In this document: positions 3,506-43,886 of the stretch, piece after piece
Layout: every line of letters starts with the position of its first letter
Position numbering within the stretch: the first letter of the stretch is position 1
IMG/VR virus record: IMGVR_UViG_3300012314_000001
DNA: 64,000 nt
Reading direction: 5' to 3' (one strand)
Source of the DNA: a virus
Program-made: the position numbers and the translations under genes
The notes under the pieces: generated by a model
What the model was told of the DNA's origin: nothing
The model's input: the letters and a program-made list of their open reading frames with translations, nothing else
Databases searched by the model: none

Positions 3506-3579
3506 ACCCTTGTAGCCCAAATGGCAGAGGCACTAGATTTAGGTTCTAGACAGTGTGGGTTCGAGTCCCACCAAGGGTA
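3506..3579 (+). tRNA. tRNA, atypical: anticodon loop tttaggt gives anticodon TAG (Leu codon CUA) but there is no long variable arm
   Basis: 7-bp acceptor stem acccttg/caagggt, T-arm gtgggTTCGAGTcccac, 5-bp anticodon stem ctaga/tctag. Confidence 0.55.
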
Positions 3580-3580
3580 T

Positions 3581-3652
3581 GGGAATGTCGTATAGTGGCT
3601 AATACGTCAGCCTTCCAAGCTGAAGACACGGGTTCGATTCCCGTCATTCCCT
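3581..3652 (+). tRNA. tRNA-Gly (anticodon TCC)
   Basis: Acceptor gggaatg/cattccc, anticodon stem tcagc/gctga with loop cttccaa, T-arm cgggTTCGATTcccg. Confidence 0.75.
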
Positions 3653-3698
3653 CTCACAGGCCCCACCTGTTTGGCTTAAAAATTGGGGCTTGTGTTTT

Positions 3699-3771
3699 GC
3701 CTCCGTGGCGCAATTGGTAGCGCAACGCACTTGTAATGCGTAGGTTGCGGGTTCGAGTCCCACCGGAGGCT
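3699..3771 (+). tRNA. tRNA-Thr (anticodon TGT)
   Basis: Acceptor gcctccg/cggaggc, anticodon stem acgca/tgcgt with loop cttgtaa, T-arm gcgggTTCGAGTcccac, followed by CCA. Confidence 0.75.
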
Positions 3772-3781
3772 CCAGATACTT

Positions 3782-4290: not shown

Positions 4291-5985
4291 GTGGGAAACC
4301 AACACGAAAGGCACAAACACGTGAAAAACACGCGCCACGCACGGCCACTTGCGCGAATCGCCGCAACCACAGCCGCCACAGCCCCCGCCACTACAGGACT
4401 TGCAATGCCTGCAGCAACCGCGGATGGGGCAAAGGATCTCCTGACTGATAACGCACACAATATCGCGGGTGGTGGTGCCAATATTCATGCTGACGACACA
4501 TGTGTGGAAAAGGTTGGCGACACAGCACACGTCAAATTCATGGCACAACACCAACCCCTTGTATACTCTTCGAATCACGACCAGACTTCGGCTTCGGGAA
4601 CACTAGCTATTCCCGCAAACATGGAAAACGTTAAAATTCGTATCAAAGCCGTCGGACACACGGGCGAAACAGACTTTCAAAACGCTCCTATCACTACAGA
4701 TATTTTCGACACTCCTATTGAAGTTCCTGTAGAAGAAGGGGATAACACAGGAACCGCAAAGGGTGTAGCTAACTTCACACCGCTGTACGAAGAGGGTGAG
4801 TTCATCGGCGGTAAGGAAAGTGTTGAAAAGAATATTGCAGACGGTGCTAAATTAGTTCGCCATCACCAGGCAGACCTTAAAGATGAGAGCGGGAATTTTA
4901 ACAACGAGAGCTTTCCATTCAGTTCCTATGGGGATTCGGACTTGCCTTGGTACGGACATCATGACGAAGAATATGACTTTTATGAATTCGGGAACCTTTA
5001 TGTTCCTTTGACCTTTGAGATTGAAGGTGACATCTCTACCGTAGGCGAAGATACGTTCGCTACCGCGGCGGTTTCTAATATCGGATGGAAGACGAGCTCT
5101 GAAGATAATTCAGGAGCTTATGAGCTAGGGGGGCAGTCACTCACGGAGTATACTCAATTCCGCCCTGGTGGCCTGCCCCCTGCCATGCCTGAAGACGAAG
5201 AAATGATCCAGGTGTATAAGGATAAATTGTCGGATGCTGGTTTGGATATTTCTTCGAATATTGCTCCCACTTCGGAAATTCCAGGTAATGCTAAGTATGC
5301 CCGTATTGGCAGTGATATTCGACCGTCTGCTCGTGGAGATGTGGGCAGGACTTATGTTGATCTGTTTTCTTTGAACGAAAATCGGGCTGTGACGTATCTT
5401 GGACAGGTTCCGGCGTCTGCTGAGGATGGTGCAGATGTGACTGCTGCTCATGTGACATTGTGTCCTGCTTCTGATACTCCGGAGACTGACGTACCAGAAA
5501 CCGAGACCCCAGAAACGGAGACCCCAGAGACTGAGACACCGGAAACTGAGACTCCAGAGACGGAGACACCGGAAACTGAGACTCCAGAGACGGAGACACC
5601 GGAAACTGAGACTCCAGAGACGGAGACACCGGAAACTGAGACTCCAGAGACGGAGACACCGGAAACTGAGACTCCAGAAACTGAAACACCGGAAACTGAG
5701 ACTCCAGAGACGGAGACCCCAGAGACTGAGACACCGGAGACCGAGACTCCAGAAACTGAAACACCGGAGACTGAAACCCCGGAGACCGAGACTCCAGAAA
5801 CCGAGACCTCGGAAATGACCACTGCCGCCCCGGCTGGTGACACCCCTGAGTCTGGAACCCCAACAGAATCTAACACCCGACACCTCGCCACTACCGGCGC
5901 AAGTGTTATCGGAATTGGTGTAGGAGCACTTGCACTCATTGGTGCCGGAACCTTCTTGGCTACCCGCCGTAAGAACCAAGCATAA
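4291..5985 (+). CDS. LAxTG cell-wall-anchored surface protein, paralog 1 (564 aa), with (ETP)n repeat stalk
   Basis: Conserved N-terminal block (NAHNIAGGGANIHADDTCVEKVGDTAHVKF) and C-terminal block (YEFGN..FEIEGD..TFATAAVSNIGW) shared with the next two genes. About 25 ETPET repeats. Ends LATTGAS + hydrophobic + RRKN. N-terminal leader is atypical (ARIAATTAATAPATTGLAMPAATA). Confidence 0.75.
   Translation: MGNQHERHKHVKNTRHARPLARIAATTAATAPATTGLAMPAATADGAKDLLTDNAHNIAGGGANIHADDTCVEKVGDTAHVKFMAQHQPLVYSSNHDQTSASGTLAIPANMENVKIRIKAVGHTGETDFQNAPITTDIFDTPIEVPVEEGDNTGTAKGVANFTPLYEEGEFIGGKESVEKNIADGAKLVRHHQADLKDESGNFNNESFPFSSYGDSDLPWYGHHDEEYDFYEFGNLYVPLTFEIEGDISTVGEDTFATAAVSNIGWKTSSEDNSGAYELGGQSLTEYTQFRPGGLPPAMPEDEEMIQVYKDKLSDAGLDISSNIAPTSEIPGNAKYARIGSDIRPSARGDVGRTYVDLFSLNENRAVTYLGQVPASAEDGADVTAAHVTLCPASDTPETDVPETETPETETPETETPETETPETETPETETPETETPETETPETETPETETPETETPETETPETETPETETPETETPETETPETETPETETPETETPETETPETETSEMTTAAPAGDTPESGTPTESNTRHLATTGASVIGIGVGALALIGAGTFLATRRKNQA
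5470..5812. repeat. tandem 15-nt repeats (gagac(c/t)ccagaaac(c/t)) encoding (ETPET)n
   Basis: Visible periodic DNA repeat inside the CDS. Confidence 0.85.
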
Positions 5986-6005
5986 TCACCTGTAAGTCCG
6001 TCTTT

Positions 6006-6040
6006 CCCGCGGCACAAGATCACATCAGCCGCGGGAAAAC
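6006..6040 (+). terminator. GC-rich hairpin (cccgcggc...gccgcggg) downstream of paralog 1
   Basis: 8-bp perfect stem. The same hairpin family follows all three paralogs. Confidence 0.5.
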
Positions 6041-6066
6041 TATTGTCAAATGAGAAAGGAATAATC

Positions 6067-7749
6067 ATGGCACTAAAGAAACCAGCACTACAAACCCTCA
6101 GTGGTATCGCAGCTATTGGTTTGACACTAGGCGTAGCAACACCAGCAAATGCTCTCCTGTCTGACAATGTTCACAACGTTGCTGGCGGCGGCGTTAATAT
6201 CCACGCTAATGACACCTGTATCGCTAAAAAGGGCGATAAGGCACATGTAAAATTCGAAGTACAACACCAGCCACTGGTTCATTCTTCTGACCACGGAAGG
6301 ACTGCCAACTCCGGGGTTATTGCTCTTCCCCACAACATGGAAAATGTTTCCATCAAAATTGTAGCCGCTGGTGGCCTCAATAGTGATAAAGGATACAAAG
6401 ACGAAAGCGGTGAGTTGTACTCCGATGAGGGATACACAACAGCTTTCACAAAGTACGACAACCCTATCGAAGTACCTATTAAGGACGCGACTGATGACAA
6501 CTTTGGTCCTCCCTCTATTGGTGAAGGAGAATACTCTGAAAAAACCTTCAAAGAAGGGAAAAACACTTACACCAATAATATCCCTGATGAGCAAGAGATG
6601 AGGGATGATATAGAAAAACGCGGGTCTTTCATGCGGAAGGTTCATCCATCCAAGAACAGTGAAGATCCAGACCCCGCTCGCTATTACACCGGACCTTTCG
6701 GTTCTTACGGTGACAATATGTGGTACGGCAACAATATCGAGGACTATGACGTTTATGAGTTCGGTAATGGACTCATGCCGCTTTCTTTCGAGATTGAAGG
6801 CGACCTTGCTGTAGACAGTGAAGACACTTTTGTTACTGCCGCTACTTCTAATCTTGGATGGAGTTCGTCTCAAGAAGGTACTGCTGGGGCCTATGAGCAT
6901 GGATCTCAGTCCCTTCAGGTATACGCGTGGGCCCGTCCTGGTTTCTTGCCTCCTGCAGTGCCAAAGGATGAAAACATGATTCAGTTCTATAAGGATCATA
7001 ACTCGGATGACGGTTTGGATATTTCGCCTTCCATTGCTCCGACTAAGGAACTTCCGGGTGATATTAAGTACCGTTATATTGGTTCCGATGTTCGACCGTC
7101 TTCCCGCGGTGATGCAGGAGCACACTATACTGAGACCTTCACTTTGCACTCTAACCCTGCTGTGACTTATGCTGGTCAGGTGCATCTTTCTGGTGAAGAT
7201 GGTGCTGATATTGCTGCGTCGCATGTGACGTTGTGTCCTGCGGAGGAGACTCCAGACACTGATGTGCCAGAGACCGAAACGCCGGAGACTGAAACTCCAG
7301 AGACTGAGGTCCCGAACACCGAGACTCCAGAAACCGAGACGCCAGAGACTGACGTGCCTGAGACTGAGACTCCGGAGACTGAGGTCCCAAACACGGATAC
7401 CCCAGAAACCGAGACCCCGGAAACTGAGACCCCAGAGACTGAGACCCCAGAGACTGAGACCCCAGAGACCGAGACTCCAAACACGGACACCCCAGAGACT
7501 GACGTACCAGAGACTGAGACTCCGGAAACCGAGACTCCAGAGACTGACAAGCCAGAAACTGACACGCCAGACACTGACACACCAGAAACCAGCGCCCCAG
7601 TCGCCGACACCACAGAATCCGAACCCCCGGCAAACAACACCCGCCACCTAGCCACCACAGGTGCTAGTGTTGCAGGCATTGGAGTACTAGCATTCGCTCT
7701 AATCGGCGCAGGAGTATTCCTTGCTTCTCGTCGCAAGAATGAGGCATAA
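6067..7749 (+). CDS. LAxTG cell-wall-anchored surface protein, paralog 2
   Basis: RBS gaaagga upstream of ATG 6067 (MALKKPALQTLSGIAAIGLTLGVATPANA signal peptide). Same conserved N/C blocks. Degenerate ETP/EVPNT repeats. LATTGAS + TM + RRKNEA. Confidence 0.8.
   Translation: MALKKPALQTLSGIAAIGLTLGVATPANALLSDNVHNVAGGGVNIHANDTCIAKKGDKAHVKFEVQHQPLVHSSDHGRTANSGVIALPHNMENVSIKIVAAGGLNSDKGYKDESGELYSDEGYTTAFTKYDNPIEVPIKDATDDNFGPPSIGEGEYSEKTFKEGKNTYTNNIPDEQEMRDDIEKRGSFMRKVHPSKNSEDPDPARYYTGPFGSYGDNMWYGNNIEDYDVYEFGNGLMPLSFEIEGDLAVDSEDTFVTAATSNLGWSSSQEGTAGAYEHGSQSLQVYAWARPGFLPPAVPKDENMIQFYKDHNSDDGLDISPSIAPTKELPGDIKYRYIGSDVRPSSRGDAGAHYTETFTLHSNPAVTYAGQVHLSGEDGADIAASHVTLCPAEETPDTDVPETETPETETPETEVPNTETPETETPETDVPETETPETEVPNTDTPETETPETETPETETPETETPETETPNTDTPETDVPETETPETETPETDKPETDTPDTDTPETSAPVADTTESEPPANNTRHLATTGASVAGIGVLAFALIGAGVFLASRRKNEA
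7249..7590. repeat. tandem ETP-encoding repeats, more degenerate (ETPETEVPNTETPETD...)
   Basis: Periodic DNA repeat. Confidence 0.8.
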
Positions 7750-7766
7750 GAACTGCTAAACTCTTT

Positions 7767-7797
7767 CCCGCGGCACTAAACACCAGCCGCGGGAAAA
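7767..7797 (+). terminator. GC-rich hairpin (cccgcggc...gccgcggg) downstream of paralog 2
   Basis: Perfect 8-bp stem, no strong T-tract. Confidence 0.4.
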
Positions 7798-7827
7798 ACT
7801 ACTACCACAACAAAAGGGAAAAAGATC

Positions 7828-9606
7828 GTGACACTAAAGAAAACAGCACTACAGACGCTTAGTGGTATCGCAGCCATTGGACTCACACTAGGCGTAGCAG
7901 CACCTGCAAACGCGCTTTTGGCTGATAACATTCACAATATCGCTGGTGGCGGTGTCAATATTCATGCTGATAACACCTGCGTGGAAAAAGTCGGAGACAC
8001 AGCACACGTTAAATTCGAAGTACAACACCAACCACTACTATTGTCTTCTGATCACGGCCAAACAGCAGCTGACGGATATATTGCTTTGCCGAAGAATCTC
8101 AAAAATGTAAAAATTGGACTTAAAGCTGTAGCAGATTTTGCTGGAGACGTGCCAAAGGAAGAAGCAAATGAACGCTATTTGGACACTCAGTACCGTGAGG
8201 CACGAATTCTTGATGAGCCAATCGAAATGCCCATTGTTGACCGTTCCGAAGACCCAGATGCACCACCAATGCTTGGTGCATCCCCTAGCGTTAGAGAAAA
8301 TCCTGACGTAAAGCGCGACGAGCGCGCTACAGATTACGAGGATCGTGGATTTTCTAAAAAGGTAACAGAAGATCCTAATAACTCTAGTAAAGCGCATGTT
8401 ACTTACTTGCCGACTGAGCAGGAGCTTCGTGACCACATCAAGAAATTTGATGTACATATGCGTAAGGTAAACCCTGTTCCGTACGATGACCCCGAGTATG
8501 ACGAGTCAAAGCACGGGTATACTGGTCCTTTCATGCTTGGGTCTGGTGACGACATGTGGTACGGAAGCCATATCAAAGAATATAATATCTATGAGTTTGG
8601 AAATATTTTCATGCCAGCCTCATTTGAGATTGAGGCAGATGTTGACGTAGAGCATGACGATACGTTTGTTACCGCGGCTACGTCCAATCTGGGGTGGAAG
8701 TCCAGTGAGGAGTACCGGGCTGGGTCCTATAAGGGTGGTTCTCAGTCTTTGCAAGAATATCCTATGTTCCGACCGGGTGTTCTTCCTCCTGCTATTCCTG
8801 AAGACAAGGATATGATTCAGGTGTATAAGGACAAGTTGTCGGACGCTGGTCTGGATATTTCTCCGACTATTGCGCCCACGAATGAGATGCCGGGTGACTC
8901 TAAGTATAAGTATATCGGTAATGATTCTCGTTCCTCTGCTCGTGAGGATGTAGGAGGTGCGTACTCTCGTATTTTTACACTGCATTCTCATAAAGCTGTG
9001 ACTTACGTTGGTCAAGTACCGCAGTCTGGCGAGGATGGTGCTGATATTACGGCGGCTCATGTGACTTTGTGTCCGTCTGACGAGACGCCACCAGAGACTG
9101 AGACTCCGGAGACTGAAACTCCAGAAACCGAGACACCGGATACTGAGACTCCAGAGACGGAGACTCCAGAAACGGAAACCCCGGAAACCGAGACACCGGA
9201 GACCGAGACCCCAGAAACTGAGACCCCAGAAACTGAGACCCCAGAGACGGAGACTCCAGAAACCGAGACCCCGGATACTGAGACCCCGGATACTGAGACC
9301 CCAGGAACCGAGACGCCAGAGACTGACGTGCCTGAGACTGAGACTCCGGAGACTGAGACACCGGAGACTGAGACTCCAAACACGGACACACCAGAGACTG
9401 ACACCCCAGAGACGGAGACCCCGGAGACTGACACTCCGAACACGGACACCTCGGAAACCGACACTCCTGCCCCTGCCCCGAGTAATGACGGGGACACTGG
9501 TTCCAGGACGTTGGCATCTACTGGTGCTAGTGTGATTGGTATTGGTGTTGTAGCACTGGTACTCATCGGTGCTGGTATTTTCTTGTCTCGCCGTAAGAAG
9601 GACTAG
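7828..9606 (+). CDS. LAxTG cell-wall-anchored surface protein, paralog 3 (592 aa)
   Basis: GTG start with RBS aaaggga. Signal peptide MTLKKTALQTLSGIAAIGLTLGVAAPANA. Conserved N/C blocks. ETP repeats. LASTGAS + TM + RRKKD. Confidence 0.8.
   Translation: MTLKKTALQTLSGIAAIGLTLGVAAPANALLADNIHNIAGGGVNIHADNTCVEKVGDTAHVKFEVQHQPLLLSSDHGQTAADGYIALPKNLKNVKIGLKAVADFAGDVPKEEANERYLDTQYREARILDEPIEMPIVDRSEDPDAPPMLGASPSVRENPDVKRDERATDYEDRGFSKKVTEDPNNSSKAHVTYLPTEQELRDHIKKFDVHMRKVNPVPYDDPEYDESKHGYTGPFMLGSGDDMWYGSHIKEYNIYEFGNIFMPASFEIEADVDVEHDDTFVTAATSNLGWKSSEEYRAGSYKGGSQSLQEYPMFRPGVLPPAIPEDKDMIQVYKDKLSDAGLDISPTIAPTNEMPGDSKYKYIGNDSRSSAREDVGGAYSRIFTLHSHKAVTYVGQVPQSGEDGADITAAHVTLCPSDETPPETETPETETPETETPDTETPETETPETETPETETPETETPETETPETETPETETPETETPDTETPDTETPGTETPETDVPETETPETETPETETPNTDTPETDTPETETPETDTPNTDTSETDTPAPAPSNDGDTGSRTLASTGASVIGIGVVALVLIGAGIFLSRRKKD
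9085..9460. repeat. tandem ETP-encoding repeats in paralog 3
   Basis: Periodic DNA repeat. Confidence 0.8.
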
Positions 9607-36473: not shown

Positions 36474-38444
36474 TTAAACGTACATCCAGTGGTCACCCAT
36501 GAAGTTAGCGTCCGAGCCGAGAAAAACTTCACGGCCCGCAGCAGCATTAAGCCAGTCTGGTGGGGTGACCATGATTTCTTGGATTTCTTTTTCTGCCTCC
36601 GAGTCTACAACAAGCTCATCGTGAATAGCGAGAATGATGGCGTCATCGAGGCCTGCTTTGTGGATATTGTTGATTGTTTCCGACAGCATGGAGTAGGCGG
36701 TTCCTTGCACAATGTAGTTCATGGCGCGGTAGCCCACATACGGGTCGGTATCCCAGGGCCTGTTATTGTCGGGGAAGTTTTCTGGCACGGTCAAACCACG
36801 CCCGTCAACGGTGCGGATAAATCCTTGTTTGCCTGCGACGTTTTTAACCCGGTTGAGGAAATCAACGGTGGGCTGCATGGCGGCGTTGTACTGGTTTTTA
36901 ATGTTGGTGGCTTCATCTAGAGATACACCTAAGTTGGACGCCAACAGAGCCTTTCCTTGGCCGTACATATTCGCCAGCACCACTGTTTTTGCTTTTTTGC
37001 GGCCTGGGTGGTCTTTGGCTTCCTTTTCGCTAAGTTCTTGTGGGATAAGGCCCGCGATTTTAGCGGAAGGGATGTACAAGTCGCCGCCCTTATTAAAGTC
37101 AACAAGGTAGTCAAAATCGTGTGCCACGTTGGTAAGCACAACAGGCTCAATGGACGACCAGTCAATGGATGTCCAAGATCGTCCTGGATCGGCATGCAAA
37201 ATAGGTCGGGCACGATCCGGGAATTGCTGAAGCTCAGGATAGCGGTAAGACATGCGGCCTGTGGCGTGAGCTCCAAGTACTCCTACCTCGGGGTGGACTC
37301 TGCCGGTAACATTTGCCATGGCAATGATTTTGTCCAAGTAGGTCAGAATCTTGTCGTGTTCTTTAAGGTCGGTGGCGAGTTTGATAAGTGGGTGGCCGAG
37401 TTTTTTGGTTTCCTTTTTCGACGCGGACAAGAGTCCCGATGCGGTAATCGGCCAGTCGGAGGGCAAACGGTCGGTGTAGTGCAGGTAGTTGATTACTTCC
37501 TGGGTGATTTTACCTGGTGAGGAGTCTAGGCCGAGGTCTTCAAAGACGGACATTTTCTCGTCCTTTGATTTTTCAAACTCGGCGCGGAAAGAGTGCGCGT
37601 AGTCCAAGTCGGCGTAGATACCAATAGCGGATCGTCGCATCATAACGTGGTTGGTGGTTTGTTCGCGTTGGATAAGGCGACGGATCTGGTCAGCGGGGTT
37701 TCCTGTAAATCCGGCAGATGGTGCGCGGTTGGCAAAGTCGCGTTGTTGGTTGTACACAGCATTGTACAGGGGGCGCAAAAGCCTCAGTGTAGCAACAGTA
37801 TCGGCCATGGCACCTGCCCGGTAGACGGGGTCAATAACAGTGGAGTTGCGGAAACCCATATCCGCTTTGGTGTATTTTTCACCAGTCACCTCATCTACTG
37901 CGGTTTCGTACCCCATGACTGCAAACGAGTCAGCAATTTTGCTGTTAATTTCTGGGAAGTTACAGAACTGGGTGGACAAAGTATCGAGGTCTCGACCGCC
38001 TTTTTGGGCAGTATTGTACATGCGGGCAAGAACAAGGGTGTCCCAAATTTTATAAATGTGGTCAAGTTCCATCAAACGGTTCTGGTACAGGCCAGGAACG
38101 TCGTAGGGGGCGTTATGGAGGACGAGGATTCCTGCGGCGTCAATAAGCGTAATGATTGCTTCGCGCTGGCCGGGGTTTCTAGGGTCAAGGAAGACGTTGA
38201 TGGTGCGGTTGTTTTCGTCCCATGCGGCGGTCACACAGCGGATGAAGAATTTTTCCAGGCCTTTGGTTTCAATATCAATGGCAACGGTCAGACCTACGGG
38301 TGGGTCTTGTTCGATTTTGTGTGCCGCATCTTGGGCAATGTAGCAGTGTGCTTGGGTGGTGGGGTTGTAGTAGGTGTCGCTGTCTGCCCCGAATGTGGAG
38401 TGAGGGAGGGTGAGGGTTCTTTCGGGGATGGGGAGGTGCGGCAT
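36474..38444 (-). CDS. family A (Pol I-like) DNA polymerase with N-terminal 3'-5' proofreading exonuclease, phage/plasmid type
   Basis: Exonuclease motifs AIDIETKGL and LVLHNAPYDVPGL. Polymerase motif B RKKAKTVVLANMYGQG and motif C ILAIHDELVVD. Confidence 0.8.
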   Translation of the reverse strand: MPHLPIPERTLTLPHSTFGADSDTYYNPTTQAHCYIAQDAAHKIEQDPPVGLTVAIDIETKGLEKFFIRCVTAAWDENNRTINVFLDPRNPGQREAIITLIDAAGILVLHNAPYDVPGLYQNRLMELDHIYKIWDTLVLARMYNTAQKGGRDLDTLSTQFCNFPEINSKIADSFAVMGYETAVDEVTGEKYTKADMGFRNSTVIDPVYRAGAMADTVATLRLLRPLYNAVYNQQRDFANRAPSAGFTGNPADQIRRLIQREQTTNHVMMRRSAIGIYADLDYAHSFRAEFEKSKDEKMSVFEDLGLDSSPGKITQEVINYLHYTDRLPSDWPITASGLLSASKKETKKLGHPLIKLATDLKEHDKILTYLDKIIAMANVTGRVHPEVGVLGAHATGRMSYRYPELQQFPDRARPILHADPGRSWTSIDWSSIEPVVLTNVAHDFDYLVDFNKGGDLYIPSAKIAGLIPQELSEKEAKDHPGRKKAKTVVLANMYGQGKALLASNLGVSLDEATNIKNQYNAAMQPTVDFLNRVKNVAGKQGFIRTVDGRGLTVPENFPDNNRPWDTDPYVGYRAMNYIVQGTAYSMLSETINNIHKAGLDDAIILAIHDELVVDSEAEKEIQEIMVTPPDWLNAAAGREVFLGSDANFMGDHWMYV

Positions 38445-38529
38445 GGTTTTTGTGCCCTCCTTGGGTTGGTTGTTGGTTTTTGTAATAGGGCTTTATTCTA
38501 GGGTGTGTGCGGCGGGTTTGGCAAATTGT

Positions 38530-38931
38530 TTAGTCGGTGTAGTTGACGGTGTAGATGCCTGTGGATTGTTGTTGAACATCAAAGATGAGGCAGTAGTAGT
38601 GGCCGGGCATGGGTGTGGTGTAGAAGTGTGCGGGTAGTTCTTCTGGGGTGATGTCGTTGAAGTAGTTGAGGGTGTGGAGTTTTTCGGCGGCTAGGAAGCC
38701 AGCAATGCAGATGACGTCGCGCACGTGTGTAAAGCCGTGTTTCTCAAATGCGGTATCGAGGCTGCCGTCGTATTCTTCTACCGCTAGGCCAGTTTCTGCA
38801 TCTAGGAATGCAGATTTAAGCACAGGATCTGCATCTGGGTACAGGTTGGCAAGGCACACGTTTTTACCTGCTTCTTGTGCGGTGTTTACAACGTGGCGGA
38901 TAGTGTCGTCGTCATACAGTGTGTAGTCCAT
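38530..38931 (-). CDS. hypothetical protein (133 aa)
   Basis: ORF. Confidence 0.4.
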   Translation of the reverse strand: MDYTLYDDDTIRHVVNTAQEAGKNVCLANLYPDADPVLKSAFLDAETGLAVEEYDGSLDTAFEKHGFTHVRDVICIAGFLAAEKLHTLNYFNDITPEELPAHFYTTPMPGHYYCLIFDVQQQSTGIYTVNYTD

Positions 38932-39011
38932 GGGTACTATTATACAAATGGTTCACGGGATGGATACTTGAATCCTCCCCACGGCTAAAGCCGGGGGATT
39001 CCCGTCTAAAA

Positions 39012-40139
39012 CTACCTACATCCCAAAAGAGATGCAGGATTTACGCTATCATCAACGGAAGGGTTGAAACCAGCCCTTAACAGCATATTACGTGCCGCAT
39101 TAACATCACGATCAATAGTGGTACCACAAAAGTCACAATGAAAAACTCTTGTACCCAGATCTAACTTGGCCTTGGCTCTCGTACCACAGTTAGAACAATC
39201 CATCGTCGTGTAATGAGGATCAATAACAAAAACGTCACTGCCGAATGTTTGGCACGCAGAGATAAGCTCCCGCTTTGCAATACCAATACCAATATCGGCA
39301 GACTTTTTTGCCATATTTTTCTTCTTAAACAAAAACGTCGACTTAAAATCCTCCACAGCAACAGTCTTATTGTGACGAGCTACATGCTGAGCCCATTTAC
39401 GAGACTGTTCCCGCCTTTGTCTTTTTACTCGACGCTCCAGCTTGGCTTTCTTCTTTTTAGCCTTACGATACTTCTCCCACTCTTGTTTGGCTTTAAGACG
39501 AGCCATTCGACGCTGATATTTAGCTAACGCTTTGGCGTTTTCTTTAACACGTGGTGTGTATCCTAAATCGAAACCAGGACGGGAGGTTGTTGCTGGGGTT
39601 TTAACTCCCCAGTCAATGCCGATCTGTCCGTCATTGTCACGAGAACGTGTTTGTGGTTCAGTGTCTACAACAAAAGACGCCCACCAGTCACCGCACGAGT
39701 CTTTAAACACTCGTACAGAACTTGGTTCAGACGGAAGGTTTCTAGACCACACCACAGGGATAACAATGTTTCCTGCTAGTTTTAGTCGCCCAGCTTTGGT
39801 GATGCTAAATCCTCGTGTGGTGTAGTTGAGTGAGGGTTTGTGGATTCGTTTTGATTTAAAGCGTGGGGCTTTACGAATCTTGTTGAAGAATGCTTTTTTA
39901 GCAGTTATGAAGTCCCTAACTATTTGTTGTTGGGGAACTACTGGCTGATCACGTAGCCATTCGTGTTCTTTTCGCCATGTAGTTACTTGTTTCATTAGGG
40001 AGGTTTGGTTTGTGTTTTCGCGTTTGTTGAACACTTCTACACACTGATTCCAAATCCAACGACACGTAGCATACTGCTGGTTAAGACTGTGTTGTGCAGT
40101 CTTTCCAGGTCGTAATTTGTACGTGTAGCGTTTCTTCAC
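39012..40139 (-). CDS. tnpB: TnpB (IS605 OrfB-type RuvC-like, RNA-guided nuclease family)
   Basis: RuvC-I IGIDWGVKT. C-terminal zinc finger CSNCG...CDFCG. RuvC-III DRDVNAARNM. 375 aa. Confidence 0.8.
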   Translation of the reverse strand: MKKRYTYKLRPGKTAQHSLNQQYATCRWIWNQCVEVFNKRENTNQTSLMKQVTTWRKEHEWLRDQPVVPQQQIVRDFITAKKAFFNKIRKAPRFKSKRIHKPSLNYTTRGFSITKAGRLKLAGNIVIPVVWSRNLPSEPSSVRVFKDSCGDWWASFVVDTEPQTRSRDNDGQIGIDWGVKTPATTSRPGFDLGYTPRVKENAKALAKYQRRMARLKAKQEWEKYRKAKKKKAKLERRVKRQRREQSRKWAQHVARHNKTVAVEDFKSTFLFKKKNMAKKSADIGIGIAKRELISACQTFGSDVFVIDPHYTTMDCSNCGTRAKAKLDLGTRVFHCDFCGTTIDRDVNAARNMLLRAGFNPSVDDSVNPASLLGCR

Positions 40140-40566
40140 ACGAACAGTATATCAGAGTGTCTGATTACAAGGACTGCGGGTACCGAAGCAACAAGAATGT
40201 GGTATATAAGTGCCATTTCCACGTTGTGTGGTGCCCTAAATACCGAAGAAAAGTACTACATTCTGGTGTTGACACTCGTCTTAAATAGCTAATCCATGAA
40301 GTATGTGAAGAATTACAGTGCCCTCTTACCGAGTTAGAAGTAATGCCAGACCATGTGCATTTGCTGGTAGAAGTAGATCCCCAGTTTGGTGTTCATAGAC
40401 TTGTTAAGAGGATTAAGGGCAGGTCTTCTCGTGTTCTTCGTGAGGAGTTTCCGTGGCTTAAAGTAGGGTCCCTACGTTGTGAACTAATTCTTATTTTGTC
40501 ACCACTACAGGAGGTGCTCCACTCCATGTGGTTAAGAAGTATATTGAGGGTCAGAAGAAGGTATAG
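40094..40566 (+). pseudogene. tnpA: IS200-type TnpA (HUH Y1 transposase) remnant, interrupted by an in-frame TAG (40286-40288) and a later frameshift
   Basis: N-part YKCHFHVVWCPKYRRKVL. After the TAG in the same frame: LIHEVCEELQCPLTELEVMPDHVHLLVEV (HUH motif). The conserved C-terminus YFVTTTGGAPLHVVKKYIEGQKKV is found only in a different frame after EFPWLK. Confidence 0.7.
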
Positions 40567-40873
40567 TAGTACGTATCAATTCCTCCCCACAGCTAAAGCT
40601 GGAGGCTTCCTTGATACGTCAGGTGACTTCAGCCGCGTATAAGGGAGCGAACCGTCTATGGCTCTTTACATAATTCAGGATAGTTCCTTCCCGCACTGGC
40701 CCAATGGTTTCGCAGAAATAACCTCCCGTCCACATAGTTGAACCTCATTGGTTCGCCGCGTGTTTTAGACGACGATGTTCGCAAGGCGAAGAACAAGATT
40801 CGACTGTTGTTCCCCGATGCGCTGCCCCTCAGCGCGAAGCAACTGCCACGTCGCATAGCCAGCCCGTTGTTCC

Positions 40874-41362
40874 TTAGACAAGAGTCCACTCCATTGTGTA
40901 GTCCATCTGCTGCAGTACTCCTGTTTCAGCGGACTCTACCGGGGCAGCAAATACAAAGTCCGTTCCCAGCTGACCACGGCCAGCATCAGGGAATTGTTCG
41001 TGAGCCTCATTCGCGTTTGCCAAAGCGGCAATCCGCCGAGCAATATTTTCTTTAAGCTCGGCGTAGGGAGCACTTCCGTGCTGGATACGACCATCTACTA
41101 CAAAGTGCGCCACATACGCTTCAACGGAGTTTGCGTACGCACGAATCATCTTCATTGTGTGGTTCTTCTTCCCAAGTCCCACCAATGATTCAAACTTGGT
41201 GACAACAGAGCGGTCGACACCCATGCGCGATGCCACCTCGCTTTGCGTCATACCTCGCAGTTTTCGAAACTCCACGAGTTGCTCAATGAGGTCCATTTGC
41301 GACCCGATGAGGTCCCCGGACAACGCATCCTTCGGCTTGATAGTTAACTTCGCCATTATCAA
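40874..41362 (-). CDS. XRE-family helix-turn-helix transcriptional regulator (possible repressor)
   Basis: HTH LRGMTQSEVASRMGVDRSVVTKFE. Confidence 0.55.
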   Translation of the reverse strand: MIMAKLTIKPKDALSGDLIGSQMDLIEQLVEFRKLRGMTQSEVASRMGVDRSVVTKFESLVGLGKKNHTMKMIRAYANSVEAYVAHFVVDGRIQHGSAPYAELKENIARRIAALANANEAHEQFPDAGRGQLGTDFVFAAPVESAETGVLQQMDYTMEWTLV

Positions 41363-41603
41363 TTCACCTCTGCTTCCCTATGTTCCATCCCATCATAAGC
41401 TATGTGCATTAAAATGCACATCCCTATTTCGGCCATGGCCGAAAAATGACCCGGTTTTTCTGACACCATCGCTTCCCTAGACGCATAGCCCGCAAAATAT
41501 CTCGATCCTGCGCCTCGTTAGTCCTATGAGCTCCCTGACGCGTGTCATCAAAGATCCGCTTTTCTTTACACAAGCTCACAAGCATCTGGTGAGGGGTAGG
41601 TCA

Positions 41604-42083
41604 CTAGAAATCCGGCTCTTTACCCCGCGGCCAGGACCCTAACCAGTCGGGCACGTCTTTGCCTGCGGAGTAGACAATGTAGACCCCAACTTTGGGGAAA
41701 TCTTCATTGGGGTAGATCTCGGCCATGTTTACTTGGCATACTTGACCGTCATCAAAATACGCGACGCCGGTTAGTCCGTCGAGTGTGGCGCGTAGTTGCT
41801 TATCAATATCGGGCAGGGTGGTAACAAACGGGGTGTATGTTTTAGGCGCGTTGGCCTTAGCTTTGCGCACAAAAATAATGACGAGGCTGATGGGGCCTTT
41901 TTGTGGCCGTATACCCGCGGCTAGTGCCGACATTTTCACCGCTTGTCGATAAGGTTTAACTCGCGCACTGGATTCACGCAGCACAGTCTTAGGTTTCTTC
42001 GACGGGTCTTTAGGCCGGGTTGTAAACGCTGTTTTGGAGCCCTGGGGTGCTGCTTGCATAGGCACATAAAACTGTTTTTTCAA
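41604..42083 (-). CDS. RusA-like Holliday-junction resolvase
   Basis: LPDIDKQLRATLDGLTGVAYFDDGQVCQV, compared with RusA [25 protein letters not shown]. Confidence 0.55.
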   Translation of the reverse strand: MKKQFYVPMQAAPQGSKTAFTTRPKDPSKKPKTVLRESSARVKPYRQAVKMSALAAGIRPQKGPISLVIIFVRKAKANAPKTYTPFVTTLPDIDKQLRATLDGLTGVAYFDDGQVCQVNMAEIYPNEDFPKVGVYIVYSAGKDVPDWLGSWPRGKEPDF

Positions 42084-43790: not shown

Positions 43791-43813
43791 TAAAATCCTC
43801 CTAGGCGTCTAAG

Positions 43814-43886
43814 CTCCCTCAACTGGGCTCGAACCAGTGACCCTTCGATTAACAGTCGAATGCTCTGCCAACTGAGCTATGAGGGA
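43814..43886 (-). tRNA. tRNA-Asn (anticodon GTT)
   Basis: Reverse complement: acceptor tccctca/tgaggga, D-arm gctcagttggcagagc, anticodon stem ttcga/tcgaa with loop ctgttaa, T-arm actggTTCGAGCccagt. Confidence 0.75.

Follow-up and report, generated by a model that had tools for sequence, protein, structure and literature searches.

A probably non-autonomous actinobacterial IS605-type element with an inactivated tnpA and an intact tnpB, ends and putative guide-RNA region in a large phage-like genome

In IS605/IS606 of Helicobacter pylori and in IS608, all of the IS200/IS605 family, a Y1 HUH transposase gene, tnpA, and a divergent tnpB lie between subterminal imperfect hairpins carried on one strand, and insertion takes place 3′ of a tetranucleotide without duplication; in IS608 the left motif is TTAC and the right end is TCAA (PMC8612924). 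In ISDra2 of Deinococcus radiodurans, where the two genes are co-directional and overlapping, TnpB uses a right-end guide RNA (omega RNA, or reRNA), whose scaffold derives from the tnpB 3′ end and the right end and whose guide is read from the flank, recognizes a TAM (TTGAT) that equals the TnpA target motif, and cleaves the donor joint (PMC8612924). TnpB also processes its own mRNA (PMC10278001), and TnpB homing as well as non-autonomous IS605 copies with tnpA fragments have been described (PMC10690162). In the IStrons of Clostridioides difficile (PMC10690162) and in IS1341-type solo tnpB elements, tnpB and the ends are intact while tnpA is missing or fragmentary, and it is presumed that such elements either do not move or depend on mobilisation in trans. 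The TldR nuclease-dead repressors, in turn, are TnpB-derived proteins whose transposase has been lost (PMC10705468). A dead tnpA accompanied by an intact tnpB and guide-RNA region is a state already well known in IS200/IS605.

An IS200/IS605 element had been predicted at about 38950-40640 of a 64,000-nt stretch from the IMG/VR virus record IMGVR_UViG_3300012314_000001 (hereafter the window), and the present analysis confirmed it and sharpened its borders to 38968-40622. Taken as a whole, the locus is most probably a non-autonomous actinobacterial IS605-type copy of this family, in which tnpA is inactivated, tnpB, both ends and the RNA region are intact, and guide-RNA homing is proposed. The features are as follows.

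36474-38444, minus strand: PolA gene, following ORF133
38530-38931, minus strand: ORF133, a flanking gene that begins downstream of the right end at a distance of 36 nt; the PolA gene comes next
38948-38967, minus strand: predicted guide, flanking DNA GTATCCATCCCGTGAACCAT, directly 3′ of the conserved TCAA terminus
38968-40622, minus strand: whole IS200/IS605 element, IS605-type with divergent tnpA and tnpB, 1,655 bp, from homology limits
38968-39102, minus strand: omega-RNA-like scaffold of 135 nt over the tnpB 3′ end and right end, from a covariance model
39078-39059, minus strand: scaffold helix H1
39058-39054 with 39006-39002, minus strand: scaffold helix H2
39038-39015, minus strand: scaffold helix H3
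38998-38976, minus strand: scaffold helix H4 (right-end hairpin), followed by the 3′ tail AGGATTCAA
39012-40139, minus strand: tnpB, 375 aa, GTG start and TAG stop, from Pfam, structure match and alignment
40140-40156, no strand assigned: spacer between the divergent genes, in which a −10-like TATACT precedes the tnpB GTG by 6 nt, from 11 relatives
40157-40566, plus strand: tnpA pseudogene (Y1 HUH transposase), with Pfam Y1_Tnp matches on both fragments
40566-40622, minus strand: left end, an inner imperfect hairpin (40581-40610) within an outer 9-bp stem (ACGTATCAA/TTGATACGT), from DNA folding
40623-40626, minus strand: TCAC left-flank motif, TnpA cleavage/target site and inferred TnpB TAM, from 11 insertions
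40874-41356, minus strand: flanking HTH_3 gene in its 160-aa allele, on the upstream side of the left end

The borders, and the absence of a target duplication, were established by comparison with five relatives that lack the IS and with four independent copies (L026, L001, L003 and L005), in which homology begins and ends exactly at 38968 and 40622. In the empty sites of L017, L020 and L021, ...GAAGTCAT is joined directly to GTATCC..., while the window reads ...GAAGTCAC, then the element, then GTATCC..., a comparison in which one base differs, the empty sites having T where the occupied site has C. The element has a GC content of 0.44, its flanks about 0.52. In 11 independent insertions whose flanks are unrelated, TCAC stands directly before the left end. 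The element carries a Y1 HUH tnpA gene, a pseudogene in this copy, and is inserted 3′ of a tetranucleotide without target-site duplication; it lies intergenically between the HTH gene and the ORF133-PolA genes, in the same orientation as those genes. By its sequence, it entered the phage-like element by the canonical Y1-transposase route. An insert of about 2.03 kb (the IS plus 360 bp), first suggested by L011-type relatives, was rejected because relatives with the 160-aa HTH allele revealed the true empty site; the L011-type relatives carry a separate 327-bp deletion.

Both ends carry subterminal imperfect palindromes on the same strand, rather than terminal inverted repeats. The near-identical hairpin sequences that had been noticed there were recovered as 30-nt repeats at 38973-39002 and 40581-40610, 87% identical, both folding as imperfect DNA hairpins and both kept in relatives with compensatory base changes. 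The left end folds at −10.5 kcal/mol (z = −3.2), and its outer stem co-varies in relatives (GTCGCGC/GCGCGAC, GTAGCGC/GCGCTAC and GTGGCGC/GCGCCAC), while one C>T change relative to L026 places a T.G mismatch in the inner hairpin. The right end terminates in ...GGATTCAA; a TCAA right terminus was found in at least 20 copies, and immediately beyond it the flanking sequence of every other copy diverges. The overall design is that of IS605/IS606 and IS608, with TCAC and a TCAA right end at the corresponding positions, and differs from theirs in its Actinomycetota background, in the left-flank motif and in the pseudogenization of tnpA in this copy.

An intact tnpB with RuvC motifs and a zinc finger had been proposed, and the catalytic residues were indeed present on alignment. 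The product contains the OrfB_IS605, Cas12f1-like TNB and HTH_OrfB_IS605 Pfam domains; its identity to characterised proteins is low, with only E=1e-21 to ISDra2 TnpB, and it matches ISDra2 TnpB structures (E=1.5e-21). Within this OrfB_IS605/TNB architecture, the RuvC-like D-E-D triad (D176/E263/D345) aligns to residues 191/278/361 of a 408-residue ISDra2-like chain, which belongs to the same protein family, and the CxxC...CxxC zinc finger (C315, C318, C335 and C338) is invariant in 26 relatives. By sequence and alignment, TnpB thus appears catalytically intact, and tnpB dN/dS was 0.12-0.19 against five relatives. The gene starts at a GTG; an in-frame TGA lies five codons before it, and neither an in-frame ATG further upstream nor a Shine-Dalgarno sequence is present. 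In a public gene call on the identical contig an internal ATG was taken as the start, which shortens the product to 327 aa; the N-terminus was therefore taken from family conservation. The arrangement (A/G)TATA(C/A)T-N6-(A/G)TG is conserved in 11 relatives, from which we infer a leaderless tnpB promoter at the −10-like box.

At the tnpB 3′ end and right end, where an omega RNA had been expected (about 38950-39060), a structured omega-RNA-like element was found at 38968-39102. A covariance model built in this analysis (R1), on which the RNA evidence rests and to which the alignment was fitted, aligned over its full 135 positions with the tnpB 3′ end of 66 loci, at scores of 39-173 bits. Paired cells reached 95.3%, compared with 40-52% in slid controls, and compensatory changes occurred in 26 of the 31 base pairs across the 66 loci. 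Helix 3 escaped RNAalifold when a MAFFT alignment was used, owing to shifts in register, and the structure-aware realignment by the covariance model recovered it. The region is identical to L026 at 134 of 135 bases, against 94% identity element-wide. A search of Rfam 15 over 38400-41200 (E<=10) returned no known omega-RNA family, the sole match being a chance snoRNA. On this modelled structure, the 135 nt look like an omega-RNA scaffold; by structure and position, a structured scaffold over the tnpB 3′ end and right end is followed by a flank-derived guide, as in ISDra2, and the TAM is expected here too to coincide with the TnpA target motif. Here, in contrast to ISDra2, the genes are divergent, the TAM is predicted to be TCAC, the RNA has its own four-helix layout without an Rfam match, and the activity of this copy is predicted only. 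By analogy with the guide length in ISDra2 (PMC8612924), the guide would be GTATCCATCCCGTGAA (38967-38952), about 16-20 nt. A match to it lies beside TCAT in the IS-free alleles L017, L020 and L021; within the window it is unique.

These features suggest a homing cycle. The conserved −10-like box would drive transcription of tnpB into a leaderless mRNA beginning at the GTG, and the 3′ part of the transcript (about 38968-39102), with about 16-20 nt of flanking read-through, would become the omega RNA. The TnpB-omega RNA complex would then cut DNA in which GTATCCATCCCGTGAA comes after TCAC, the sequence of the element's own insertion site when empty, and repair from an occupied copy could reinstate or spread the element. 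The copy itself would be unable to move alone, and an intact same-family TnpA could mobilise it in trans, which is plausible because both ends are intact and L026 carries an intact TnpA.

Three-frame translation and base-by-base alignment against the intact L005 tnpA were used to read the lesions of tnpA. The in-frame TAG reported in the original prediction lies at 40286-40288, where intact homologues have GAG, and the reported frameshift results from a 1-nt deletion that leaves AAA at 40460-40462 in place of the relatives' AAAA. The count of two disruptions was nevertheless too low, since a third coding lesion, which turns the TGG at 40480-40482, part of the conserved motif LW(T)NSYF, into TGA, had been missed. 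The start region is damaged as well, by an ATG>GTG change and a 5-nt deletion in the 17-nt divergent intergenic region. The genes are divergent, as described, but they do not overlap, a 17-nt gap separating the family-supported starts (40157 and 40139). After repair, the translation is 136 aa, aligns end to end with intact homologues, and retains the HUH motif (HVHLL), KKYIE and the C-terminal Tyr. Over 3,439 bp that take in all of tnpA, L022, from the assembly of a different sample (JGI 3300012466), shows 100% identity, so the lesions are not assembly errors. Judged from these sequences, tnpA is dead, with two nonsense mutations, one frameshift and a damaged start region. Compared with the C. 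difficile IStrons, there is no group I intron here, and tnpA is full-length with point lesions only, an earlier stage of decay. The decay looks recent because only point lesions are present and the tnpA dN/dS against L026 is 0.18; this copy is therefore little evidence for long-term retention of tnpB after the death of tnpA.

Such recency raises the question of whether the whole element is simply decaying. The recent death of tnpA would then be the sole reason why tnpB and the RNA region are intact, they would be under no selection here, and tnpB might not be expressed. The few tnpA lesions, all of them point changes with the low dN/dS just given, fit this account, as do the GTG start without an upstream ATG or Shine-Dalgarno sequence, the 327-aa automatic call, and the fact that inter-copy dN/dS mostly records history preceding tnpA loss. 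The closest relative, L026, has 94% nucleotide identity along the full 1,665 bp, and its TnpA, of 136 aa, is intact. Against decay of the whole element, the sister copies L001 and L003, at two other loci, have tnpA deletions of 80-160 bp and still keep a full-length tnpB with all catalytic residues. For these two tnpA-deleted copies tnpB dN/dS was 0.16-0.19, and it was 0.19 between L001 and L003, both without a working tnpA. By sequence comparison, this supports continued selection on tnpB, a pattern already described for the IS200/IS605 family. Moreover, the RNA region is one base off L026 against 6% divergence element-wide, and the 5-nt deletion shortened the tnpA-side spacing, whereas the −10-like box and spacing on the tnpB side survived it. 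We therefore regard decay of the whole element as unlikely, and the non-autonomous copy with an intact tnpB and omega-RNA-like region is preferred.

The proposal that this copy is an immobilised, retained and stand-alone nuclease locus was supported in one part. Sister copies keep tnpB, in line with retention. Immobilisation was not supported, since both ends, with TCAC and TCAA, are intact and L026 encodes an intact TnpA; nor was a stand-alone or TldR-type domesticated TnpB, in view of the intact RuvC triad, the retained transposon ends and a guide that matches the local flank. The guide is simply flanking DNA, as in any canonical copy, and the locus is not a TldR.

A doubtful alternative, slightly less probable than decay of the whole element, is that the phage-like host element uses TnpB-omega RNA as a weapon or drive against IS-free co-infecting genomes, by marker exclusion or homing in the manner of phage homing endonucleases, and keeps tnpB for that use. 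The element and its relatives do lie in large phage-like genomes, with a PolA closest to Corynebacterium, Gordonia and Nocardia phage polymerases and with RusA, YqaJ, WhiB, Dam, cutinase and tRNAs, and copies with a dead tnpA and an intact tnpB occupy three different loci in the lineage and were seen in several samples. At the TCAC position the IS-free sites have TCAT, CCAT or CCAC, so that exact TCAC occurs at the insertion site in none of the sampled IS-free relatives and a cleavable target was not seen in nature; every one of them is altered in the TAM (TCAT, CCAT), in the target (L019 and L023) or by deletion, and the L011-type 327-bp deletion takes out the TAM together with roughly 10 nt at the beginning of the target. 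Yet the IS-free relatives are 4-8% diverged overall, so that a single-base difference in the TAM is to be expected through drift and common ancestry; TCAT is only putatively non-permissive as a TAM, and co-infection and cleavage are purely hypothetical. What is described would in any case be normal TnpB homing in a different setting, not a distinct function. Extended to a broader statement, that tnpA-less TnpB-omega RNA modules persist as homing or exclusion nucleases in large phage-like elements of skin-associated actinobacteria, with the TAM changes and the 327-bp deletion as escape scars, the idea is speculative and rather improbable.

That tnpA is functional after all, its stops read by an alternative code or suppressor, its frameshift programmed or all lesions being sequencing errors, is very hard to credit: TAG or TGA is sometimes recoded in large phages, the TGA falls exactly at a conserved Trp codon and the frameshift lies within a homopolymer, but TAG terminates 12 and TGA 2 of the 22 domain-bearing window genes, none of the four tRNAs is a suppressor, GAG, AAAA and TGG stand at the three positions in intact relatives, which show no frameshift, and the contig recurs identically in another sample's assembly, so that recoding and programmed frameshifting were rejected on alignment, tRNA set and stop usage.

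Alone, the non-autonomous copy has little significance, since tnpB outliving its transposase is the rule in IS200/IS605 and the mechanism is established. Together with its relatives it forms a natural one-lineage series, from the autonomous L026 through the freshly inactivated window copy to the deletion-bearing L001 and L003, which, given its exactly placed ends, the TCAC TAM inferred for it and its well-supported RNA structure, is usable for characterising actinobacterial TnpB systems. The IS-free alleles that differ at the TAM or target add a small population-level hint, interesting only with measured TnpB cleavage specificity.

Megablast and blastn found no nucleotide relatives of the region in the phage collection; in the plasmid collection, the only nucleotide match was tRNA-sized and tblastn of TnpB gave only matches of <=45% identity. 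IMG/VR scans with TnpB, PolA and the TAM-plus-target sequence yielded no close relative, and a GTDB scan with TnpB peptides gave no match. The GyrB of L001 is a highly divergent gyrase with matches only in metagenomes. The right-end DNA pattern was found only in assorted Actinomycetota MAGs and Bifidobacterium gallicum.

ORF listing of 38950-40640 revealed a 375-aa minus-strand ORF, matching Pfam OrfB_IS605, a Cas12f1-like TNB domain and HTH_OrfB_IS605, and two plus-strand ORF fragments opposite, both matching Y1_Tnp. The features of the region are as follows.

Features of the IS200/IS605 element and its flanks
38530-38931, minus strand: 133-aa ORF, next to the PolA gene
38948-38967, minus strand: predicted guide
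38968-39102, minus strand: omega-RNA-like scaffold
39012-40139, minus strand: tnpB
40157-40566, plus strand: tnpA pseudogene
40874-41356, minus strand: HTH_3 gene (160-aa allele)

Many contigs from related elements encode the flanking 133-aa and 160-aa proteins, and some of these contigs are IS-free. In relatives with the same 160-aa HTH allele (L017, L020, L021) the empty site reads ...GCTGAAGTCAT|GTATCCATCCCGTGAACC..., whereas the occupied site in the window reads ...GCTGAAGTCAC|[IS]|GTATCCATCC... From this comparison the element is delimited as 40622→38968 (1,655 bp), inserted directly 3′ of a tetranucleotide without duplication. TnpB close relatives are numerous in metagenome assemblies, and copies inserted independently elsewhere (L026, L001/L002, L003/L004 and L005-7) share with the window a homology that spans exactly 40626 to 38968. 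TCAC always abuts the left end (11 insertions with unrelated flanks), and the right terminus is TCAA in at least 20 copies, beyond which the flanks diverge. Such a combination, a target motif in the left flank and a related terminus on the right, is IS608-like, and by analogy with ISDra2 (PMC8612924) TCAC would be the expected TAM, the motif beside a target that TnpB needs. Both ends fold into imperfect DNA hairpins, the left one with an extra outer stem that co-varies among relatives. A larger insert of ~2 kb, suggested by comparison with L011-type relatives, was rejected, because in those relatives the site is spanned by a distinct 327-bp deletion.

The original prediction that TnpB keeps its RuvC motifs and zinc finger proved correct. 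The product matched solved ISDra2 TnpB structures (E=1.5e-21); in a 408-residue ISDra2-like chain the counterparts of D176, E263 and D345 are positions 191, 278 and 361. Across 26 aligned relatives (45-94% identity) these three residues were invariant or near-invariant, and C315, C318, C335 and C338 of the zinc finger were invariant. The start assignment is the weakest link in calling this TnpB "intact": the public gene call for an identical contig uses an internal ATG, giving 327 aa. With an in-frame TGA five codons upstream, the start must be the GTG at 40139; the N-terminus M/V-KKRYTYKLRPG, conserved among relatives, also argues for it. The window and 11 relatives carry a −10-like (A/G)TATA(C/A)T box 6 nt before this start, and the absence of a Shine-Dalgarno sequence ahead of it suggests a leaderless mRNA. 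In intact copies, a perfect palindrome, AGTATATACT, occupies the space between the divergent starts (equivalent to window 40140-40156) and could be a bidirectional −10 box for two leaderless mRNAs; a 5-nt deletion in the window leaves only its tnpB side intact.

The lesions of tnpA were mapped by three-frame translation and by aligning the gene base by base with its L005 homologue, which is intact (136 aa). The in-frame TAG and the frameshift predicted originally were both recovered, the former as GAG>TAG at 40286-40288 and the latter as the loss of one A at 40460-40462, where an AAAA run has become AAA; overlooked were a third lesion, TGG>TGA at 40480-40482 within the conserved LWTNSYF motif, and damage to the start region. 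Here the start is GTG at 40157 (ATG in relatives), and the 5-nt deletion brings it closer to the conserved, palindromic −10-like box. The supposed overlap of the two genes was not found: with family-supported starts they lie 17 nt apart. When repaired in silico, TnpA retains its HUH motif as well as the tyrosine region at the C-terminus. These lesions are real, since L022, a contig from another sample's assembly (JGI 3300012466), is 100% identical to the window over 3,439 bp including the whole tnpA. Recoding or programmed frameshifting was excluded, since TAG is the commonest stop codon in the window's domain-bearing genes (12/22), no suppressor tRNA occurs among the window tRNAs, and intact tnpA relatives contain no frameshift.

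Examination of other copies on metagenome contigs showed that tnpA is intact elsewhere. The closest relative, L026 (TnpB 96% identical; 94% nucleotide identity over 1,665 bp), encodes an intact 136-aa TnpA, and L005, L032, L038, L041, L043 and L046-48 also encode an intact TnpA. This indicates a lineage that is active, and the window copy, which retains both its ends, could be mobilised in trans. Decay has occurred independently in other copies: L001-type copies have a 160-bp tnpA deletion, L003-type copies have two deletions plus the same 1-nt frameshift as the window, and tnpA was not detectable in L036, L037 and L044; every one of these retains a full-length tnpB. The pairwise dN/dS of tnpB was 0.12-0.19, with 0.19 between two tnpA-dead copies. 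For tnpA it was 0.18 between the window and L026 versus 0.03-0.04 among intact copies, which suggests recent relaxation. Solitary tnpB genes and fragments of tnpA are known in the IS200/IS605 family (PMC8612924, PMC10690162), and the window copy is an early stage of this well-known decay trajectory. The original observation was confirmed and refined, while its reading as an immobilised and retained locus is only partly supported: tnpB is kept in tnpA-dead sisters, but the ends are intact, mobilisation in trans is plausible and the decay seems recent. Domestication of the TldR type (TnpB-like nuclease-dead repressors; PMC10705468) was rejected, as the window TnpB, unlike TldRs, keeps its nuclease residues and transposon ends.

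Two further arrangements were seen among relatives. In a 72%-identical TnpB relative (P0013; L035:895-1995), Gly replaces the RuvC-I aspartate (GVGWG), the right-end hairpin is divergent and no tnpA lies within 895 nt upstream; it is possibly a nuclease-dead derivative. In L008:2075-5197, tnpA (147 aa) is intact and has a TCAC and left end of its own; three ORFs (119, 155 and 147 aa; no Pfam hits) lie between it and tnpB, and directly upstream of tnpB is what remains of a second tnpA start. This arrangement represents either passenger genes or two abutting elements.

The RNA region had no match in Rfam. When the final 220 nt of 21 distinct copies were aligned (MAFFT), a conserved hairpin was seen within the coding sequence, along with the right-end hairpin and a long-range helix of 5 bp in which AU<->UA and CG<->UA exchanges occur; a variable hairpin spanning the tnpB stop codon was misaligned. 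A covariance model of the resulting four-helix structure, built from nine close copies, bore out the predicted structured RNA, matching all 135 of 135 positions at the tnpB 3′ end of 66 loci (39-173 bits; TnpB identity down to 42%). In the 66-locus alignment, which was fitted to the model and so inflates pairing somewhat, standard pairs made up 95.3% of cells, against 40-52% with partners slid by 1-3 columns; two-sided, compensatory changes occurred in 26/31 pairs, and the covariation score was 0.486 versus 0.05-0.10 in slid controls (0/500 shuffles reached the observed values). Helices 2 and 3 swap pair types freely, and are not required for DNA recognition by TnpA. The original placement at 38950-39060 was about right, although the scaffold extends deeper into the ORF, to 39102. 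Only 1 of its 135 bases differs from L026, whereas the whole elements are 6% apart. The predicted guide, GTATCCATCCCGTGAA(CCAT), occurs once in the window.

A homing or exclusion role of TnpB and its omega RNA within phages appears improbable. None of five kinds of IS-free allele (L017, L019, L020, L021, L023) has TCAC with the exact target: three have TCAT at the TAM position, one CCAT and one CCAC, the target also being altered in these last two. This absence would fit escape from TnpB cutting, but the IS-free relatives are 4-8% diverged and share ancestry, and drift explains the pattern as well. In the common L011 type (L011, L013-L016), the 327-bp deletion, around 4971-4979 (window 38961/40986) and bounded by TCC microhomology, takes out the HTH C-terminus (127 aa versus 160) together with the TCAY motif and the initial ~10 nt of the omega-RNA target; it could be an ordinary deletion or mark a break that was repaired. 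In L019 (2123-3911) and L023 (780-2460), at the counterpart of window ~41400-41900, another IS200/IS605 element, whose genes for TnpA (129 aa) and TnpB (465-473 aa) are co-directional, sits immediately upstream of that HTH gene; IS605-family insertions thus recur in this short stretch.

Part of a 76-kb ENA contig (ERZ27289756:k141_4759) matches the window at 100% identity, and related contigs reach 266 kb (140-266 kb). The nearest named relatives of its family A DNA polymerase are those of Corynebacterium, Nocardia and Gordonia phages (~40% identity). Further genes are listed below.

Other encoded functions of the host element
RusA, DnaQ-like exonuclease, YqaJ/RecE-like exonuclease, WhiB, cutinase (LysB-like) and SLT domain
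59507-60049 and 62121-63149: Dam-like and EcoRI-like adenine methyltransferase genes, flanking the FtsK/SpoIIIE-like gene
60116-62134: FtsK/SpoIIIE-like ATPase gene
3506-3774: tRNA cluster Leu-TAG, Gly-TCC, Thr-TGT
43813-43886: lone tRNA Asn-GTT

The host element was absent from the phage, plasmid, IMG/VR and GTDB genome collections searched, and one relative came from a human-skin assembly; its most likely identity is a large phage or phage-like element of actinobacteria. A gyrB-gyrA pair adjoining a sister IS copy (L001:349-4567) suggests that it encodes its own gyrase; this GyrB is highly divergent, with one 98% identical copy, next relatives at no more than ~61% identity, and only 20 hits at E≤1e-50, all metagenomic. 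The tRNA-Asn is 93% identical to Tsukamurella and Arthrobacter plasmid-record sequences, and in L008 the IS is followed by a Thr-like tRNA. At 4291-9606 lie three paralogous ORFs in tandem (564, 568 and 592 aa), which have proline-rich C-terminal halves and only sub-threshold 'extensin-like' matches. The right-end motif GGAATCCCC-N4-TTTA-N4-TGGGGAGGAWTCAA was found (L106-L112) in Bifidobacterium gallicum DSM 20093 and in MAGs labelled Mycobacterium, Acidimicrobiia and Nanopelagicales, so that the range of the IS family extends across Actinomycetota.
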